Shown here piece by piece: positions 16,042 through 26,412 of a stretch of DNA of 64,000 nucleotides; the first letter of the stretch is position 1; each line of letters opens with the position of its first letter. Where the stretch lies: assembly GCA_963816145.1 (NCBI GenBank), contig CAWFJP010000005.1, positions 192,001 through 256,000 of the forward strand. The letters run 5' to 3'. This DNA is from an uncultured delta proteobacterium. Lineage in GTDB: Bacteria; Desulfobacterota; Binatia; UBA9968. The translations under genes and the position numbers were made by a program. The notes beneath the pieces are model-generated. The model saw nothing but the letters and a program-made list of their open reading frames with translations. It was not told the DNA's origin and did not search any database.

Positions 16042-19000
16042 TGGGACATCGCTTGCCAAATCTCATGGGCCAGCGACTCGATGCTTTTGCTTCCCAGGAT
16101 CTTTGTGGCGGAGATTGCGCAGTCGAAGTCGAGGCGGATCTGGTTCGATAAAACCATGGCGACCATAGAGTCCAGCCCCAAGGCCATGAAGCCGCTCTCT
16201 GCCGTGATCGTCGATTCGGGAAATCCCGATAGTTCGGCGCATTGTGTCTGCAGATAGCGCATCATACTTTGCACACTGGAGATCGCCGTAAGCGGCTCAA
16301 CAATGCGGTGCGAGCCGGTCTGCACCCTGCGTTCGCCGGCGCCGAGGGTTGTTTGATCTCTGGGCGCCGCCACGGCGTCGCGCGTGATCGGCCGCAAACG
16401 GAACCCTGCTAGTTTTGCCACCAGCTGGCCGGCGCTATTCAAAATCGACAGGTCGGCAACAACGTCGTCCGCGCTATGATCGCGCAATCGCGCATGGCAC
16501 CAAGCTTCATGGTGGGTCGACGGCACATCGAACAACATGAATGTATCGACTGAAAACGGCACAAACGTAGCGCCGGTTTTGTCCATGACCTCTGCGGTCT
16601 CGATAGTCGCGCAGCAGTGCAGCACCTGGCAGGCGGCTTCGATCAGGCCGGGATGGAGCCGATAGCGCGAAACATCGATCATCTCGTTCGGGCAGACGGC
16701 GCGGCATAGCGCTTCGCGATCGCCCTGCCAGATTGAGTCGATCCAGCGGAACGCCGATCCGGTGCCACCCTGGTTCGCCCAAATCTTCGAGTAAAATTCC
16801 ACGCCCGACAATGGTTTGCGACAGCGGGCTTTGATAGCGGCCAAAGGCAAAGTCTCCTCGTCAAGGCGCCGATCGCTTGATGGCTGCGAGCGCCCCAGCC
16901 CAATCATATGGGGCGTCCACGCCGCATTGTTCCTCGTTGGCTTCTTGACTGTCGGCGCTGGTGAGTTCCAAGTTCCATCGTTGCTGTTCGGGCCTGAAGA
17001 TGAGCTGAACATCACGCTGACAGCCGTCCGGAAGCAACAGGGGACGCAGCATGTAGAGATCTTCGAATTGAAAAGCCGGGTCTAGTGCGCCGCCAAGGTG
17101 CTCAGCTGCTTGGGCGAGCATCGCAAAATGCGAAGCGGCGGGCGGCAGTGATATACCAAACAGGCGGTGGTCGGTGAGAAAGTGAGGCGAGGTCTGGGTG
17201 AAACGCGATTCAAAACGAATTTCGTTCGAGCCGGGCAAGCGGAGTCGCCTTCCCAGCAAAGGATGATCGGTTGGCTCAGCCGAAGGAGTGGTCGCGAGCG
17301 GCGCGGCGGACGCCAGCGCGCCTTGATACCAATGACGCGAACGTTGGAATGGGTAGCTCGGCAGAGGGACGGGCGACCGGCGCTGGCCGCCTTGAAAAAC
17401 GGCCCAGTCTGCCGGCGCTCCGCGAACGTAGAGACGCGCCAGGGTCTCGAGTAGCGCGATCCAGTCGTTTTCGCCGCGGCGCAGGGTTGGAATTGTTTCG
17501 CTGCCAGGCTTTGACGCACCGTCTTGGTTTGAGTGAGACGAAATACCGTTGGGGCCGACTTCGACAATGATGTCGCACTGTTTTTCGAACTCGGCCCGCA
17601 TCGCGCCTGGGAACTGTCTTGGGTGCCGCATACCTTCGCCGCTGTACTGCTGAACGAGAAACTCGTTCGTCAACGTCTGATCAGATGCTTGGCCGATCGG
17701 TTGCAAAGTGGGATGATGCCCTGGGATTTTGCCGCGGAGATGTTGTCGCGGTTTGCCGGCCGCCAAGGCGATGCCATCCTCCAGGCTCAGAACTCCGGCG
17801 ATGCAGCCGGCCGCAAACTCACCGACGCCCTGGCCGATGAGGCACCGGGGCTCGATCCCGTACCAGCGAAGCAGTTCGGCTAGCGAGTATTGCAAGGCAA
17901 ACAGGGCGGGCTGCGCATACTCGGCGCGCTGCAGCAGATCTCCCGACGCGGCGAACATCACATCGACCAAGGGGCGCTCAAGATGACTGCGCAGGGTTCG
18001 ATCGCAGTCATCGAGCAAGCTGCGGAATTTTCTGCTGGCGCGATAAAGCTCTTGCCCCATGCCCGGATATTGCTCCCCATGCCCGGAAAATGAAAAACCA
18101 ATCGCTAGCTCGCTAGCGGCTTTAGCCCGCCAACGGCCGGACGCACCGTTCGAGCGTTCGCCGCGCGCCAAGCGCTCGCGCATTTGCTCGACGGTGTTGC
18201 CGACGACGGCGGTACGATACCTATAGCGAGACCGACTGCGCTGGCTTGTCGCTGCGATACTGCCGATGTCGGTGCTGGAGTTTGCCGCAAGAAAATCCTG
18301 GTAGCTCGCCTCCAATTGAGCGAGCGCTGGCGCAGATGCCGCTGAGAGCGTCAGCAGGGAAGCGGGCAACTCATCCGCGGTAAAATCATCAACCGCCGGA
18401 GGCGCTTCCTGTAGGACTACGTGACAGTTGGTGCCGCCGACGCCGAATGAGGAAACCCCGGCGATGCGATGCGCACGCCGATAGTCGGTCGGCCACGGCA
18501 GCAAGCGGGTGGAGATCCGAAAGGGACTGGTGTCGAGGGCGATCTCCGGATTGGCTGTCTGGAAATGCAGCGTTGGCGGGATCTCGCGGTTTTTGAGCAC
18601 CAGGACGGTTTTGATCAGGCCGGTGATGCCGGCGGCGGTGTCGAGGTGGCCAATATTGGTCTTGACCGCACCCAGAGCGCAAAAGCCGCGTTCGGTGGCG
18701 GTGCGCCGAAAGGCGCGCTCGAGAGCGGCGAACTCGATGGGATCGCCGATCGGCGTGCCGGTACCATGGGCTTCGACATAGCCGATCTCAAGGGCCTTAA
18801 CCTGCGCGTGCTCCTGCGCCCGCAGGATCACCGCAGTTTGACCGTTGACGCTCGGCGCGGCAAAGCTCGCCTTGTTCGAGCCATCGTTGTTGATCGCCCA
18901 ACCGCGAATCACCGCGTCGATGCGGTCATTGTCTCCGATCGCGTCTGTTAGCCGTTTGAGCACGACGGCGCCGACGCCGTCGCTGAAAACCGTACCAGAG

Positions 19001-21654
19001 GCGTCGATATCGAAGGCCCGGCAATGGCCATCGCGGGAGTGCATGCCGTCCTGGCTAAAGGTAGCGCTGTGGGTTTGCGGAAACGTCAGCGCCACGCCTC
19101 CGGCGATGGCCATATCGCACTGGCCGCTGACCAGTGCTTGGCAGGCTTGCGCGACGGCGACCAGCGAGGTGGAACAGGCGGTCTGAACGTTGATGCTGGG
19201 ACCGCTAAGATTGAGCAGATAAGACGTGCGCGTGGCGATGGAATCGCTGTCGTTACAGATCATGAGTTGGCGGGCTTCATCGGTCGCGCGTTGCAGCAGC
19301 GCATCCACGGCAGCGCGATCGCCGCCGACGAGGTGCCACAGATAGGTGCTTTCCCGTCCGCCCGCGAAAACGCCGATATTATTATTTTCACCGGCAAATC
19401 CCGCTTCGCTCAGCGGCAATCCGGCATCTTCCAGGGCTCGATGCACGCATTCCAACCAGATACGTTGCTGGGGGTCGAGCCGCTGGGCTTCCCTTGGCGT
19501 TAGCCGGAACAGCGCGGCATCGAATTCATCGACATGGGAAAGCACGCCGCGCGCCGCGACGAGGACAGGGGTGTCGTCCGGCGCCGTGCCTTCGTCGGTT
19601 AAAGTAATACTCTCACGCCCGGCGCGCAGATTGTCCCAGAACTGTTCTAAATTGTCGGCGCCAGGAACGCGTCCGGCCATGCCGATGATGGCGATACTGT
19701 GATCGGGCCAAGGGCTCTTATCATGGGCGGTTGTGCTTGGGTGCTTCTGGTCCTTGGGCGGCTGCGGCAGGCCGCCTATGAAGTTGGCCAGCGCACGAAT
19801 CGTGCGGTGTTCAAAAAGACTGGCCACAGCCATTTCCTTGCCGTTCTGCTCCCTGAAGCGAGTGACGAATCGAGCCGCGCGCAACGAGTCGCCGCCGAGA
19901 TCGAAGAAGGAATCGAGCACACCGACATCGTCGATCTCCAGGATTTCCGACCAGAGGCTCGCAATCTGCTTCTCGATCGTGGTTTGAGGCGCGACAGGAT
20001 CATTCGACAGCGGCGGGCGCTGTCGACCCGGCAGCGGCAAGCGCTGGTAATCGATTTTGAGATCGTTGGTCAGCGGCAATGCATTTACAAAGACGAAGGC
20101 GCTCGGCACCAGCGACTGCGCAAGGCGTTCAGTTAGCGCTTGGCGCAGCTGCGTGACCGTCACGCTGGTCTGGGCAACCAGATAGGCGCACAGCCTGCGC
20201 TCGCCGACACGATCTTCGAAGTCGCGGACCGCGCACTGGGAAACTCCCGCAATCCTGAGCAAGTGGCCTTCGATCTCGGCCGCGTCGACAAACTCGCCGG
20301 CGACACGGATGCGCTGATCGACTCGACCGCGGTGAGTCAAGCAACCGTCATCGCTCATGCTGCCCAAATCGCCGGTGCGGTAGCGGCGCATACCGTTATC
20401 AAGCGCGGCAAAGCGTTCGATGCTCAGTTCCGGATTGCGCCAGTAACCGGTTGCAAGATATTCGCTTTCGACGACAATCTCGCCGGTAGCTTCAGGCGGC
20501 AGCTCGTCGCCGCGCTGATCAACGATGCGCACCGTCATGTCCGGCACCGCGTAGCCGATTGGCACTGATTCGGTTTGATTCAACCGAGTCTGCGCGTTGA
20601 TGAAGAACTGACGCACCAGCCCGCACTCGGTTGCGCCCAGACCGTTGACCAGCGTGCAATGATCCTGAAAGTTTGTCTGAAAATGCGCTATATCCAGCGC
20701 CGATGCGCGGTCGCCTTCAAGTCGCACTAGCCGAACGTCTGGAAATCTCGTGACCGGATCCGAGAGTTGGCGGAAGATCGACGGAACCGAGTGAAAGACA
20801 GTTACCCGAGTCCGCCGAAGCCATTCCGAGAGAGCCGAGAAACCATCGCGTTGTAGATCGAAAGGGGCAATCACCGCGCCATTTAAGAGCGCCCCAAACA
20901 GGCTCGAGACCGTACCGCTGAAGCTCGGGTTTTGCACCAGACTTAGAATATCTCCCGGGGCAAACTTGAGTGTGTTGGTGTAGCGCAGGATGTTGTGCAA
21001 GACGTTGCGATGGCAGTCAGCAACGCCCTTGGGCGTGCCAGTGGATCCCGACGTATAGAAAATATAGGCGATGCTTTCAGTGGCAACCAGCCGGTCCAGG
21101 TTCTCGCTGGAAAAGCGATTCAGATCTGCATCAGACGGGATCACAGGAAATCGGCCGGCAGCCAGTTTTCGAGCAAGATCGAATTGATGTCCAGCGCTGA
21201 TTATTGCGCCTGGGCGAAGTTTATCGACCATGTTACGTAGGACGGGGTCGGGAAGGCGCTGGTCGAGGGGTGCGTAACTACTGCCCGCCTTGAGAATAGC
21301 CAAGGTCCAGACAATCGATTCGTCGCTTTGATCGATCAACATCGCGACCGGCCGAGTTTCGCTGGTCATCTTGGCGAGTAGCAGGTGCGCAGCTTGATTC
21401 GCGGCGCTATTCAATTCTGCATAGGTGACGTCGCCTGATGAGCGGCGAATCGCTAGCGCAGCCCCGTCACGAATCACTTGCTGCTCAAAAAGCCGATGGA
21501 TAGGTTGGTGGCATTGATCGGCGGAAAATTCCGAGAAGGCCTCAGGAAAACATAGGTTGTTGCGCGCGTCCAGGTCCCTCATGACAGTTTCGATGGTGGC
21601 TAGGTTGAGTCCCTCACGACCGGTGAATCCGTAAGCATTGCCCGATGCAGCCAA
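16038..21654 (-). CDS. Hybrid NRPS/type I PKS: A-PCP-KS-AT(degenerate)-DH-ACP, frameshift near 16930
   Basis: YTSGSTGTPKG, YRTGDLG, FFDLGGDSL, DPQQR, TACSTS, HGTGT, NIGHL, HRLFGISLPP and LGLDSM; ORFs 16861..21654 and 16038..17015 overlap inside the DH domain; start may be ATG 21582. Confidence 0.9.
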
Positions 21655-21975
21655 ACGGCGACAAATGTCTCAGGAATAGGCGAGAAAAGTGTTTTGTAAG
21701 TGTGCCATGGTAATTTTGCCCATACCCTAGCTGGCTAAGAATTCTTCCGAGGCGCAAGATATCCACGGGGTCGAATGAAATCAACATCGGGTTGGTAACA
21801 TGATTAATTATGTCTCATGATACCAGAAGCCGTGGTAAAACTCGCGACTTCCATCGAATCGAACTACAAGCCGGCCGTAGCGGTCGATATTACCGCAGCG
21901 CGGCAATTTCGCGGCATCGAAACTGTGGGAATGGTCATCTAAAGGTAGGACCATTGGCGTTAGGAGGGGACGAAC

Positions 21976-23184
21976 TTGACGATAGTTCCGAGCGGCCTTG
22001 AAGGATCAATGATCTCAAAAAGCGCCGGTGGCTTGATCATTTCGCGAGCCGAGCTTAGCGGGCGATTGGCAGATCGTGCGTTGGTGATCGTTAACGTGAT
22101 GCCGGTGGAGTCGTTCAAAGCGGGGCATATTCCCGGTTCCGTGAATCTTCCCATCGCGGACATACCAAGCAAAGCGCGCCAGGTGCTCTCCGATCTCCAT
22201 CAGGAGATCGCCGTGTACTGTGCCGGGCCTACCTGACCGTTGGGCAAGCAAGCGGTCGGCTTGCTCGAAGGCCTGGGTTACACCAACTTGCGCTATTATG
22301 TCGGCGGAATGGCGGAGTGGTCGGAAACTGGCGGACCGGTGGCAGGCCAGAATCAAGCCGCTGCGCCGTCATCGAACAGTTCTAGTTTGGCTCCACGTGC
22401 GTATCGCTTATCTTGGCTGGAAAGGGTTGCCGGTCTTTCACTTGAAAGGCTAGTCGTCCTCTGGCTCTCCATGATCGTTGTTTTCGGCGTGATCTATTGG
22501 GTTGCCGGGGTCGGTATGGGAATGGGACTTCAGGCAGGTGGTAATCTGGTCAGAGCCGATGGCCAGGGTTTCGTCACGGCAATTTATTTTAGTTTCGTCA
22601 CCGCGCTCTCAATCGGTTACGGCGATGTCGTGCCGCTCGGCTTGTTTCGCATCGTCGCGATCGTCGAGGGTGCGGCCGGCTTGCTGATCTTTGGCTGTGT
22701 AATTTCAAAATTGGTGTCGCGGCGCCAAGAGGAACTTACCGAAGAGATCCATCAGACGACTTTCGAAGACCGGCTCGATCGGGTGCGGACCAATCTGCAT
22801 CTAGTCTTCACCGATATTGGCTCGGTGCAGCAGTTGCAAGCGGAACAGGGGGTTCTGCCGGAGCTCGTCCTGCGAAGATTGGAGAGTACGGTGCGGGTAT
22901 TTCGCGGCGAGCTGCGGGCAGTGCATGACTTGCTCTACCGTTGCCGGGTGATGCCCGACGAAGAAACAATGGACTCGCTGCTTGCCAATTTGATCATTTG
23001 CCTACAGGGTTTGACCGATATCGATAATGCTTTGCCGATCCGGTCCTCGAACTTGAACCTGGGACTCCGCTCCATTGGCAACCTCGCCAATGAGATCTGC
23101 GGCGAATGCGTGCCCCACGCTTATGCGCCGGTATTGAAAGATTCGATGGATCAAATCCAAGAACTGGCGCGCAAGATTGCATGA
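21976..23184 (+). CDS. Rhodanese domain / two-TM potassium channel fusion, probable selenoprotein (UGA at 22234-22236), 402 aa
   Basis: GHIPGSVNLP...VYCAGPT*PLGKQAVGLLEGLGYTNLRYYVGGMAEW is one continuous rhodanese domain across the TGA; AIYFSFVTALSIGYGDVVP pore; AGGAGG RBS before TTG 21976. Confidence 0.82.
22237..22266 (+). promoter_or_regulatory. Candidate bacterial SECIS hairpin
   Basis: Stem agcaagc (22247-22253) / gcttgct (22259-22265) with loop GGTCG, 17 nt downstream of the in-frame TGA. Confidence 0.7.
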
Positions 23185-23269
23185 CCATTCCCGCCCGCCT
23201 CATGTGAATTCTTGTTTGCTATCCATTGCCGTGCTATTCGTTGCGACACCAATTGCGGAGGGACCTCCT

Positions 23270-23582
23270 GGCTTCGGCTTAGATTGATTAATCCCATACT
23301 GTCGTTGATCGCTCTGGTCTTGATGCTTGGCGGTTGCCAAGCTTTGACTGGCGAAACGGTCGGCGAAAGTGTCGACGACACGGGAATCATTACCCGCGTC
23401 AAAGCCGCGCTGGCCGCAGACAAGGGATTTTCACTGACTCGTGGAGGCGTTGAAACCACGCGCGGCGTCGTCCATTTGACCGGTGTCGTCCAGTTGGCGT
23501 CGGATCGCAGCCGCGCAGAACAGGTAACGCGCACAGTGACCGGGGTAAGAGGCTGACCGACAATCTACAAGTTGGGCCGTAG
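23270..23582 (+). CDS. BON domain lipoprotein (start uncertain; 1-nt deletion near 23553)
   Basis: LGGC lipobox, VDDTGIITRVKAAL, GVVHLTG; VTDNLQVGP* continues in a shifted frame. Confidence 0.7.
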
Positions 23583-23730: not shown

Positions 23731-24006
23731 TTGTTATTGAGTTTGGCGTTCGGCAGTTGCCAGACGATTCGCGATAAAGCTTCCGGGCCGGAGTTCGAGG
23801 ACGCCAAACTGATCGCTGTTATCAAGGCACAGCTGGCGCTGGAAGATCGGGCGACCGTTCAGGGCATCGATGTGGATGTCGACGATGGCGTGGCCAAGCT
23901 CAAAGGTACCGTCGATACGGTCGAGAAGAAAAACAAAGCCGGCGAGATCGCGCGCAAGGTGAGCGGCGTCAAGAGCGTCGTGAACAATATTCAGGTCAAG
24001 CCCTGA
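23731..24006 (+). CDS. BON domain lipoprotein (start uncertain)
   Basis: FGSC lipobox-like, IDVDVDDGVAKLKGTV, GVKSVVNNIQVK. Confidence 0.85.
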   Translation: MLLSLAFGSCQTIRDKASGPEFEDAKLIAVIKAQLALEDRATVQGIDVDVDDGVAKLKGTVDTVEKKNKAGEIARKVSGVKSVVNNIQVKP

Positions 24007-24092: not shown

Positions 24093-25082
24093 TCATTTCG
24101 CAATCGAATCGATGAAGCCGCTTTTTTCCAACTGATCGACGATCGATAGATCGACGAACTGTTCGGGTTTCGGCAGCGGTTTTTTCCCCGGATATTGGTT
24201 TTCAATCATGAACTGGATCGCCTTGAGCGACGGGCGCGGGCTTTTTTGCAGTGTCGGCGCGTAGTCTTGCCAGGTGCCTTCGAGGATTTCTTCGTCGTTT
24301 AACTTGCCGTATTTGGCGAGGATTTTTTTGCTGAACTCCTTGTCGGTGCGATAGCGCTGCATGCCGCGGGTGAAAGCGCGCATGAAGCGCAAGGCGGTGT
24401 CGCGCTGCTGGGTCAGAAACGTGCGGGTGGTGATCACCGTGCCATTAATATCCTCGACGCCCAAATCGGCGAAGTTGACCAGCTCGCGCATGCCCATCTT
24501 CTGCGCCTTGGGGTACAGCGGGTAGCTCAGCGCCGCCACTTGAACCACGCCGTTGGCCAGAGCCGCGAACGCTTCCGGCTGCGCGCCGAAGGTGAGGATC
24601 GCCACATCTTTGTTCGCTTCGAGGTTGAAATGCTTGAGGGCGATGCGCACGAGCTGGTCCGAGGTGGAGCCGAAGGTGGTAATGCCGGCCTTCTTGCCTT
24701 TCAAGTCCGCCGGCAGTTTGATTTCGGGACGGGCGATCAGACGAAACGGCGACACCGTGCCGGTGGAGCCGATGATCACGACATCGCTGCCTGCGGTCGT
24801 CGCGGTTATGGCGGCGATGGCCCCTGCCTGGATGATCGGCGCGCTGCCGCCGAGCATCGCCGCGACCATCCGGCTGCTACCGCCGACGCGGATGAGCTCG
24901 ACATCGAGTCCTTCAGCGCTGAAGTATCCCGCCTCTTTGGCGATCCATGCGGTCGCCCAGCTGCCCGCAAAACTAGGATAGAGCAGGCGCATGGGTGTCT
25001 GGGTGGTCGCGCAAAATGCCGCGTTCGATAGGCCGCTGATGGTTACTAGCAAGGCGAGCAGCGCGATTTTTCTGCCGAACAT
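24093..25082 (-). CDS. NitT/TauT family ABC substrate-binding protein
   Basis: Signal peptide; AKEAGYFxxEGLDVEL, DLKGKKAG and FVDLSIVDQLEKSGFI. Confidence 0.92.
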   Translation of the reverse strand: MFGRKIALLALLVTISGLSNAAFCATTQTPMRLLYPSFAGSWATAWIAKEAGYFSAEGLDVELIRVGGSSRMVAAMLGGSAPIIQAGAIAAITATTAGSDVVIIGSTGTVSPFRLIARPEIKLPADLKGKKAGITTFGSTSDQLVRIALKHFNLEANKDVAILTFGAQPEAFAALANGVVQVAALSYPLYPKAQKMGMRELVNFADLGVEDINGTVITTRTFLTQQRDTALRFMRAFTRGMQRYRTDKEFSKKILAKYGKLNDEEILEGTWQDYAPTLQKSPRPSLKAIQFMIENQYPGKKPLPKPEQFVDLSIVDQLEKSGFIDSIAK

Positions 25083-25152: not shown

Positions 25153-26412
25153 TTGGTTATGCAACGCGAAGATACCTCAAAGCTGCCATCGAAGAAAAGC
25201 GCCGCGGCGGAAATTGCTCAAGCCGCCGGTGCGCCAGCCGGTTCCTTTTGGCCCCAGGCTGCGCCGGTATTTTTCTTGGTGGCGATCTTTCTGCTCAACT
25301 TTATTGCTCGGGTTATTTTCTCGCCGCTCTTGCCGACCATCGAGAAGGAAATGGAGATCGGCCACGGCCAGGCCGGGTTCTTTTTCTTTCTCATCTCCGC
25401 CGGTTATTTGAGCGGCTTACTGGGCTCGGGATTTTTGTCGTCGCGCACGACCCACCGCCTGACTATCCTAGTTTCCGGCAGCGGGGTTGGCGCGGCGCTC
25501 TTGCTGCTGTCGGCTTCGAGCAGCCTTGGGTCGATGCGCGCCGGTTTGTACGTCTTGGGACTGGCCGCCGGGCTTTACATGCCGTCAGCGATCGCTACGA
25601 TCACCGCGCTGGTCGATCAACGCCATTGGGGCAAAGCAATTGCGATTCACGAGTTGGCACCTAATCTAGCATTTTTCATCGGTCCGTTTGTCGCCGAATT
25701 GTTTCTCAATCATTCGACTTGGCGCGCGGCGTTGGCGATGTTGGGAATGACTTCCGTACTTATCACCATCGCTTACTCCCGCTATGGAAAGGGCGGCCGT
25801 TTCGTCGGTGAATCGCCGGCGTCGAATGCCGTCGGTGTGCTCGTGCGCACATCGGCATTCTGGATCATGTTGATTCTCTTCGGCATGGGTGTGAGTGCGA
25901 CGGTGGGGATTTACGCCATGCTGCCGCTCTATCTGGTGACTGATCGCCATGTCGAGGCGACCTGGGCGAACACGGTTACCGCATTTTCACGTTCCTATGG
26001 ACCGGTATTCGGCATGCTCGGCGGCTGGGCCTCAGATCGGCTTGGGCCAAAACGGACCATGATGGTCAGTTTGATCGTTACCGGTGCGCTGACTTCGCTT
26101 TTGGGGTTGGTCGCCGACGATTGGATCGGTGCGTTGGTGATTGTCCAACCGGCTCTGGCGGTATGGTTTTTCCCGGCTGGATTCGCTGCCCTCGCGGTGA
26201 TCGCGCCGCCGCAAGCGCGCAACCTCGCGGTGGGCTTCACCATCCCCTTTGGCTATTTGATCGGCGGCGGCGCGATCCCGACGTTTATCGGCATCATGGG
26301 CGACGCTAAACTTTTCGCTCTAGGCTTCACGATCACCGGGCTGTTGATCACCGCCGCCGGTTTGCTGGCGATTTCGCTCAAGCTGCCCGGCTATGCCAAA
26401 GTCGGTCACTAG
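25153..26412 (+). CDS. MFS transporter
   Basis: About 12 hydrophobic segments; GWASDRLGPKR motif. Confidence 0.92.
   Translation: MVMQREDTSKLPSKKSAAAEIAQAAGAPAGSFWPQAAPVFFLVAIFLLNFIARVIFSPLLPTIEKEMEIGHGQAGFFFFLISAGYLSGLLGSGFLSSRTTHRLTILVSGSGVGAALLLLSASSSLGSMRAGLYVLGLAAGLYMPSAIATITALVDQRHWGKAIAIHELAPNLAFFIGPFVAELFLNHSTWRAALAMLGMTSVLITIAYSRYGKGGRFVGESPASNAVGVLVRTSAFWIMLILFGMGVSATVGIYAMLPLYLVTDRHVEATWANTVTAFSRSYGPVFGMLGGWASDRLGPKRTMMVSLIVTGALTSLLGLVADDWIGALVIVQPALAVWFFPAGFAALAVIAPPQARNLAVGFTIPFGYLIGGGAIPTFIGIMGDAKLFALGFTITGLLITAAGLLAISLKLPGYAKVGH

Follow-up and report, generated by a model that had tools for sequence, protein, structure and literature searches.

To our knowledge, few selenoproteins are anything other than soluble oxidoreductases or enzyme subunits. 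For rhodanese-type proteins, the main text of a 2026 review lists five forms containing selenocysteine (Sec, U), with the motifs UxxS, UxxG, CxU (NF041203), UxxG, and UxxxxU (form 5, which is TsoB), and it gives forms 1–4 only as PF00581 or sulfurtransferase proteins (PMC13188914). The same main text reports several Sec-containing transporter proteins or transporter-associated families and names no ion channel; it nowhere uses the terms "channel," "potassium," "transmembrane," or "CxxxxU" (PMC13188914). A literature search covering the main texts of papers turned up neither a Sec-containing ion channel nor a fusion of a rhodanese with a K+ channel. Here, we analyzed a 64,000-nucleotide stretch of DNA (the window) from an uncultured delta proteobacterium of the Binatia. 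With a probability that we place at roughly 0.88, positions 21976–23184 of the window constitute a single gene for a selenoprotein that joins a rhodanese domain to a potassium channel-type pore and a helical tail bearing a CxxC motif, the in-frame UGA being decoded as Sec by the organism's own SelA, SelB, SelD, and tRNA-Sec. This assignment is drawn from sequence comparison.

A single reading frame interrupted by one TGA

The segment 21976–23184 on the forward strand is one reading frame whose sole interruption is a TGA at 22234–22236. When this codon is read through, the product is 402 amino acids long, and the frame closes with a terminal TGA at 23182–23184; an ATG at 22009 offers an alternative start. 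Position 22236, given earlier as the end of the first open reading frame (ORF; 21976–22236), is the last base of the interrupting TGA. The codons that follow are CCG (Pro88) and a TTG at 22240, which opens the second ORF (22240–23184) with the frame unchanged. The read-through product contains ...EIAVYCAGPT-U-PLGKQAVGLLEGLGYTNLRYYVGGMAEW..., followed later by FVTALSIGYGD between hydrophobic helices and by EICGECVP in the tail. The TGA corresponds to residue 87, designated Sec87 below, which lies five residues past Cys82. The Cys82 codon (22219–22221, forward strand) falls at the catalytic-Cys position of rhodaneses in a phmmer alignment to PDB 6mxv. A Shine–Dalgarno-like AGGAGG occupies 21962–21967 (forward strand), 8 nt upstream of the TTG start at 21976, and no AGGAGG-like site is present in the sequence upstream of the TTG at 22240. 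Orthologs align from residues 19–22 through residue 402 in a single frame with exactly one TGA. A preliminary description of the locus, made from the sequence alone, had drawn the same outline. The coordinates of its two in-frame ORFs split by a single TGA hold; AGGAGG precedes only the first of them; the hairpin agcaagc/gcttgct with a GGTCG loop 17 nt after the UGA is present; and the KcsA-like pore with SIGYGD and the EICGEC tail are borne out by translation, the pore also by Pfam.

Conservation of the TGA codon among relatives

A six-frame search of 60 related genomes retrieved a match with exactly one TGA in 11 of them; nine matches were near full length (56–79% identity), and contig ends truncated the other two. 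In each of the 12 sequences, the window included, the TGA occupies the same column of the motif Y-C-[AG]-x-x-T-U-P-L-G. Scanning one genome per species with sequence patterns yielded 33 loci, comprising 28 distinct loci that cover the site, 2 cut at contig ends, and 3 from Peribacteria. All 29 distinct genome-derived sequences (the 28 loci and the window) have TGA at the Sec column. By record label, these sequences span Binatia/"Deltaproteobacteria," Methylomirabilota, Acidobacteriota, Gemmatimonadota, Eisenbacteria, Planctomycetia, Polarisedimenticolia, and Latescibacterota. The coding sequence flanking the TGA is conserved and under purifying selection.

To metagenome contigs we applied a scan that took a Cys-containing form as its first query and used patterns derived from the selectivity filter and the tail CxxC, and was hence blind to the Sec site. 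Eighty loci were kept, of which 74 have TGA at the Sec column, 3 have TGC, 1 has TGT, and 2 could not be parsed, so that TGA accounts for 74 of the 78 parsed loci. In bacterial families, Cys forms usually outnumber Sec forms; a family in which Sec is apparently chosen about 19 times in 20 is unusual. Cys forms were also recovered when 1.84 billion cluster representatives were searched exhaustively with a profile, a search that returned 141 proteins at E ≤ 1e-30. The Sec column was read in 14 full-length representatives and holds Cys in 12, Ser in 1, and Gly in 1; Pfam scans of Cys-form representatives confirmed both the rhodanese and the Ion_trans_2 domain. The claim that no Cys forms exist, which had come from a word-index search with residues 1–150 that returned no PF00581+PF07885 protein, was overturned by this search. 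In a quick tree, Sec and Cys forms interleave (five changes) and deep nodes are without support; a single origin is still compatible with it.

Independent assemblies retain the TGA. Contigs from public runs belonging to two different studies span the codon (X7 record 13, 21900–22342; X19 record 3, 22035–22852) and have no differing letter at 22234–22236, though differences occur elsewhere in the same contigs. This evidence consists of Logan contigs from four runs, with run X1 covering 4 of 30 bins. Contigs from an RNA run (X20) extend over 22311–22501 and 23012–23250, a weak hint that the gene is transcribed.

A conserved hairpin downstream of the UGA

Bacterial Sec insertion sequence (SECIS) elements are hairpins just 3′ of the UGA with a G in the apical loop. 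The hairpin at this locus (22247–22265, forward strand) has a 7-bp stem, with arms agcaagc at 22247–22253 and gcttgct at 22259–22265, and a 5-nt loop (GGUCG, DNA GGTCG at 22254–22258); it starts 13 nt past the UGA, and its loop follows after 17 nt. We take this spacing and the loop G to agree with the bacterial SECIS consensus. The strength of the case lies in conservation across relatives rather than in folding energy. Across the 29 distinct genome sequences, 95.6% of the 203 stem cells are paired, versus 24.6–44.3% when the 3′ arm is slid by one to three columns. In a set of 75 sequences (72 distinct; the window and the metagenome Sec forms), the corresponding values are 90.5% of 504 cells versus 24–45%, the unpaired cells lying mostly in the outermost pair. 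At least six of the seven pairs are kept in 70 of 74 Sec forms; the Cys forms keep only four, four, two, and one. Loop base 2 is G in every Sec form (74/74), and loop base 3 is U in 71 of 74.

Sec forms share a Q-A-V-G-L-L peptide where the stem is encoded, variants with Ala in place of Gly retain the hairpin in a shifted register, and the four metagenome Cys forms have a different peptide at the hairpin site. This pattern suggests that the conservation of Q-A-V-G-L-L in Sec forms partly reflects an RNA constraint. The stem includes a compensatory change (CAA/UUG versus CAG/CUG) and five cells with double changes. The observed compensatory values were reached by 3 of 500 shuffles for the 29 sequences, and the covariation score by none of 500 for the 75 sequences. 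Synonymous-site entropy over codons +4 to +10 is 0.594, versus a gene mean of 0.757, with equally low values in 6 of 171 windows; this low synonymous variation past the UGA is supportive, not strong.

Selenocysteine machinery and the case for decoding

The source genome (7.8 Mb, 31 contigs) carries the window on contig 5 and the sel genes on contig 30. There, selA (616 bits), selB (417 bits), and selD (380 bits) all exceed their curated cut-offs and form a cluster at 562492–566803; a tRNA-Sec (74 bits) lies about 10 kb beyond it at 576761–576851 (loci L001, L002, L010, and L013). ARAGORN found no tRNA in the window itself. The selD gene has its own in-frame TGA near the N-terminus (...VKAAG-U-AAKLGPGDL...), indicating that the organism already depends on Sec decoding. 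Among 10 distant genomes that carry the TGA form, 8 have selB above its cut-off, and the remaining 2 have selA and tRNA-Sec. We also considered the co-occurrence of selB as a discriminator and found it uninformative, as selB is present in 54 of 61 genomes regardless of the channel gene.

The preliminary description had raised the prospects that the genome might lack Sec machinery, that homologs might have Trp or another non-Cys residue at this codon, that reads might show TGC or TGT, and that the rhodanese and channel might never be fused elsewhere. What we found is a full set of selA, selB, selD, and tRNA-Sec; TGA or Cys in nearly all homologs, with one Ser, one Gly, and never Trp; no TGC or TGT in the contigs that span the codon; and a rhodanese–channel fusion that recurs in genomes labeled with several phyla. 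Homologs with Cys or TGA at this codon, for which it had proposed a search, were found, and the hairpin is conserved in those with TGA.

Several observations weigh against Sec decoding. The folding energy of the hairpin is unremarkable relative to shuffles (z 0.06), and no Rfam match around the site was obtained at E-values up to 10. Covariation is modest, only two pairs having double changes, because the stem lies in conserved codons (K/E-Q-A and G-L-L). One of the 11 gene-bearing relatives (G009; 93% complete, 670 contigs) has no selB above the cut-off. The relatives with Ser or Gly at the Sec column imply that a second chalcogen is not indispensable for the fold.

If the TGA were a genuine stop, the locus would encode an 86-amino-acid rhodanese fragment and a 314-amino-acid channel, or would be a pseudogene. 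Public pipelines annotate it in this way, and the unexceptional hairpin energy would fit. Such a fragment, however, would lack the final strand and helices of a rhodanese, and the remainder of that fold is encoded in frame past the TGA by a second ORF that has no ribosome-binding site. Conservation of the TGA column across phyla with purifying selection on its flanks, the replacement of TGA by Cys in relatives, and the presence of the Sec machinery are likewise difficult to reconcile with a stop. We consider this explanation very improbable; the comparative data leave it almost no room.

The rhodanese domain

The rhodanese homology domain (PF00581; 55.5 bits versus 22.2, E 8.7e-15) covers residues 24–117 and runs across the TGA (22045–22326, forward strand). 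An AlphaFold2 model based on a 10-row alignment (mean predicted local distance difference test [pLDDT] 72.9; predicted template modeling score [pTM] 0.39) places an α/β rhodanese domain at residues 20–115. Foldseek searches with this model retrieved only single-domain rhodaneses, namely 6mxv, TSTD1 (6bev), BH2092 (3o3w), and 3gk5 (TMt 0.64–0.80, probability 1.00). In the phmmer alignment to 6mxv, Cys82 falls on the loop Cys (ycgggfrs), and Sec87 is aligned with the loop Arg, after which two extra residues are inserted. Cys82 is invariant in our family alignment (A1). The canonical rhodanese loop is C-R-x-G-x-R; the loop here, C-A-G-P-T-U, departs from the canonical six-residue loop ending in Arg or Thr. 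Since Cys82 is kept and Sec stands at +5, the protein is unlike selenoprotein rhodaneses that have Sec in place of the catalytic Cys. From rhodanese loop geometry, the +5 position presumably adjoins the Cys sulfur.

Rhodaneses of the C-x4-C type are also found on their own as single domains, in tandem, and fused to AhpC/TSA-type domains. Two Cys-form relatives of the channel protein (P0146 and P0142) have a C-terminal AhpC/TSA (peroxiredoxin-type) domain. These associations point toward thiol, peroxide, or persulfide chemistry. Separately, an apparent second selenoprotein with a C-x4-U rhodanese, a frame of about 235 amino acids with one TGA (L037; genome G033, contig 764, minus strand), reads VYCYDFQ-U-DLSPRAAW followed by CBS-pair-like sequence, and similar frames of 230–240 amino acids with one TGA occur in genomes G028, G029, G002, G004, and G018. 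Frames of the L037 type suggest that the C-x4-U rhodanese may be a reusable module.

These properties could also belong to an enzyme. The protein might be tethered to the membrane and work there as a sulfurtransferase or reductase, with thiosulfate, polysulfide, selenite, or an arsenic species as substrate and with Cys82 and Sec87 paired for catalysis and resolution. The chief role of the channel-derived part would then be to anchor the protein in the membrane as a tetramer, or it would conduct something other than K+. Cys82 sits at the catalytic position, the structures nearest to the domain are those of active single-domain sulfurtransferases, TSTD1 among them, and the free, tandem, and AhpC/TSA-fused C-x4-C rhodaneses accord with catalysis. 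The nearest curated selenoprotein, TsoB, joins a rhodanese to a DsbD-like membrane electron-transfer module. We nonetheless regard an enzyme as unlikely.

The pore, linker, and tail

A low-complexity linker rich in Ser, Ala, and Pro (residues ~118–145; 22327–22410, forward strand) connects the rhodanese to the membrane part. It is predicted to be disordered, with a pLDDT below 50 at residues 116–145, and its length varies in A1. The pore module (22441–22725, forward strand) comprises a first transmembrane helix (TM1) at residues ~156–181, a pore helix at 196–212, the filter at 212–217, and TM2 from residue 224. Ion_trans_2 (PF07885) matches residues 164–248 (49.6 bits versus 22.5, E 3.7e-13), and sequence matches of the pore in the PDB include KcsA and KirBac3.1 at E ~1e-4. 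The K+ filter signature is T-[VI]-G-[YF]-G-D; the filter here, S-I-G-Y-G-D, is close to canonical, and in other members it is S-V-G-F-G-D, with a Ser that retains the hydroxyl. In Sec forms, the stretch F205-S-x-V-T-A-L-S-I-G-Y-G-D-V is invariant in A1. We consider the predicted pore probably K+ selective. The very strong conservation of filter and pore helix in Sec forms favors selection on conduction and so runs counter to a mere anchor. The enzyme explanation does draw some support from one Cys-form branch that has lost the first glycine of GYG and kept the remainder of the protein, its filter being degenerate (S-A/S-S-Y-G-D; SSSYGD in P0146 and SASYGD in P0142). K+ conduction is accordingly not necessary in every member, and this branch may have given up K+ selectivity while retaining the redox parts.

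The presumably cytoplasmic tail (residues 251–402; 22726–23181, forward strand) is helical in the AlphaFold2 model. TM2 continues as one long helix (224–289), and further helices are predicted at 295–322, 329–352, 358–376, and 385–401. The tail has no Pfam family, and Foldseek with the whole model found no structural relative of it in the PDB. Its CxxC motif (C375-G-E-C378) is present without exception in the alignment of 65 family members, including the relatives with Ser or Gly at the Sec column. The motif therefore appears to have a role of its own. A metal-based explanation builds on this invariance. Cys82, Sec87, and the tail CxxC could form a site for a soft metal or metalloid (e.g., Hg, Cu, Zn, or As), making the protein a metal-regulated channel or giving it a structural metal that holds the tetramer together. 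No metal-resistance genes are conserved beside the gene, however, and the AhpC/TSA fusions point instead to peroxide and thiol chemistry. We judge this explanation less likely still than an enzyme.

Three loci labeled Candidatus Peribacteria (L071–L073) encode homologs of the pore and tail with neither the rhodanese nor the tail CxxC. In the sample examined, proteins have the rhodanese and the tail CxxC both or neither. Two further loci are irregular. One with a Latescibacterota label (L070) has the TGA and the hairpin and shows frame changes elsewhere, attributable to a frameshift or an assembly error; the other, with an Acidobacteriota label (L063), has an unusually long Pro/Arg-rich stretch replacing TM1. 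Both may be decaying copies or assembly artifacts.

Public annotation and occurrence

The preliminary description anticipated that standard gene callers would split the gene, and public calls are indeed truncated. The 120 best matches listed from a collection of 5.8 billion proteins are 231–321 amino acids long, cover 57–78% of the query, and carry only PF07885; source names among them are "hypothetical protein," "ion channel," "potassium channel LctB," and "potassium channel family protein." All 54 short forms that we aligned start 2–25 columns past the Sec column, inside the rhodanese domain, and most retain the rhodanese remainder G-Y...G-G...W. Because every one of these short calls is truncated, the family is invisible to surveys of domain architecture, in which the rhodanese half is either lost or left as a separate fragment. 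Metagenomes of wetland, soil, and sediment commonly contain the gene. At least half of the sampled words of the stretch occur in each of 19 public runs from 18 studies, although the best-matching run may be the one from which the window itself derives. The family is apparently undescribed and widespread among soil bacteria.

Gene neighborhood

Directly upstream, a 1,597-amino-acid ORF on the reverse strand (16861–21654) has, judged by its translation, the look of a hybrid between a nonribosomal peptide synthetase (adenylation and carrier domains) and a polyketide synthase (ketosynthase–acyltransferase). Downstream lie two BON-domain ORFs on the forward strand at 23212–23556 and 23731–24006 (Pfam E 4e-11 and 3e-17), of which the first has a lipoprotein-like N-terminus; only close relatives have BON-domain ORFs beside the channel gene (L041, L043, L045, and L046). 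An NMT1/THI5-like substrate-binding protein (24093–25082, reverse strand) and an MFS transporter (25153–26412, forward strand) are syntenic within the genus, not beyond.

Proposed function

Both termini of KcsA are cytoplasmic. With the same topology, four rhodanese domains would hang below a tetrameric pore. The Cys82/Sec87 pair would alternate between a selenol/thiol form and either a selenenylsulfide or a sulfane-loaded state, and this state, possibly relayed to the tail CxxC, would set the open probability of the tetrameric K+ channel. When selenium is lacking, translation would halt after 86 residues, ahead of the pore, so that channel abundance would track selenium supply. Gating by redox state or sulfane sulfur is a plausible proposal, on which we would stop a little short of even odds. 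We hold somewhat more tentatively the broader proposal that this is the first selenoprotein ion channel, in which a portable C-x4-U switch would couple redox or sulfane-sulfur state and selenium to K+ conductance and membrane potential. In this same broader proposal, the protein would represent a family that nearly always uses Sec and is found in many phyla of soil, wetland, and sediment bacteria, with the module occurring on CBS domains as well.

A gated K+ channel has its own difficulties. The filter has Ser in place of the KcsA-type Thr, the degenerate filter of one Cys-form branch departs further, and the pTM of 0.39 leaves the inter-domain geometry of the model uncertain. No neighboring gene that might hint at a pathway is conserved across phyla, as the shared ORF clusters are only antisense or overlapping ORFs of the gene itself. 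This last point bears equally on an enzyme, for which one might look to conserved sulfur, selenium, or arsenic genes nearby; none is conserved across phyla. If the proposed selenoprotein channel is correct, selenium biology reaches ion channels, and the K+ channel field gains a new type of cytoplasmic control domain. The natural Sec/Cys pair, together with the Ser and Gly variants, would then offer a means of probing what Sec adds over Cys.

Comparison with known systems

No model in NCBIfam release 20.0 reaches its cut-off on the read-through protein. The top-ranked model is MoeB (E 5.3e-8), followed by TsoB (NF045694; E 7.4e-8, residues 21–140). The TsoB model scores 30.9 bits against a cut-off of 805 and matches the rhodanese part only, which places the protein outside that family, and no TsoB above the cut-off was found in the source genome. 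TsoB is still the nearest described relative, as it combines a rhodanese that has Sec at the same +5 spacing with a fused membrane module. The two differ in that TsoB has Sec at both positions (UxxxxU) and a DsbD-like partner, whereas the protein described here has CxxxxU and a K+ channel-type pore. The rhodanese_LYCAU model (NF041203) scores 18.2 bits against a cut-off of 115, again outside the family; Sec is at +5 here and at +2 in C-A-U.

The UxxG and UxxS motifs presumably reflect Sec at the catalytic Cys position. With forms 1–4 of the Sec-containing rhodaneses, as far as the main text of the review describes them, the protein shares the rhodanese fold and a Sec in or beside the active-site loop; it is set apart, by these motif descriptions only, in keeping the catalytic Cys and placing Sec at +5. 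Because U-P-L-G also reads as UxxG, form 2 or form 4 as described there could be the same rhodanese type.

Other relatives share the membrane part or the overall plan. E. coli YgaP has a cytoplasmic rhodanese on two membrane helices and is not known to have a pore helix, filter, Sec, or C-x4-C/U motif. MthK is a K+ channel gated by RCK domains, with this cytoplasmic domain attached to the pore. KcsA-type channels have the same TM1, pore helix, GYGD filter, and TM2, and both KcsA and KirBac3.1 are matched in sequence; the protein described here differs in its N-terminal Sec rhodanese, its CxxC-bearing helical tail, which belongs to no Pfam family, and the filter Ser in place of the KcsA Thr. 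Closest in architecture are the Cys-form homologs (P0129, P0137, P0163, P0165, and P0180), which have the rhodanese, the pore, and the CxxC tail. They differ in having Cys at the Sec column and a helix past the loop that is not QAVGLL, and the hairpin is absent in the four metagenome Cys forms. Taken together, these comparisons support a new selenoprotein family in which a K+ channel pore carries a control domain of a new kind and the decoding mechanism is the standard one.

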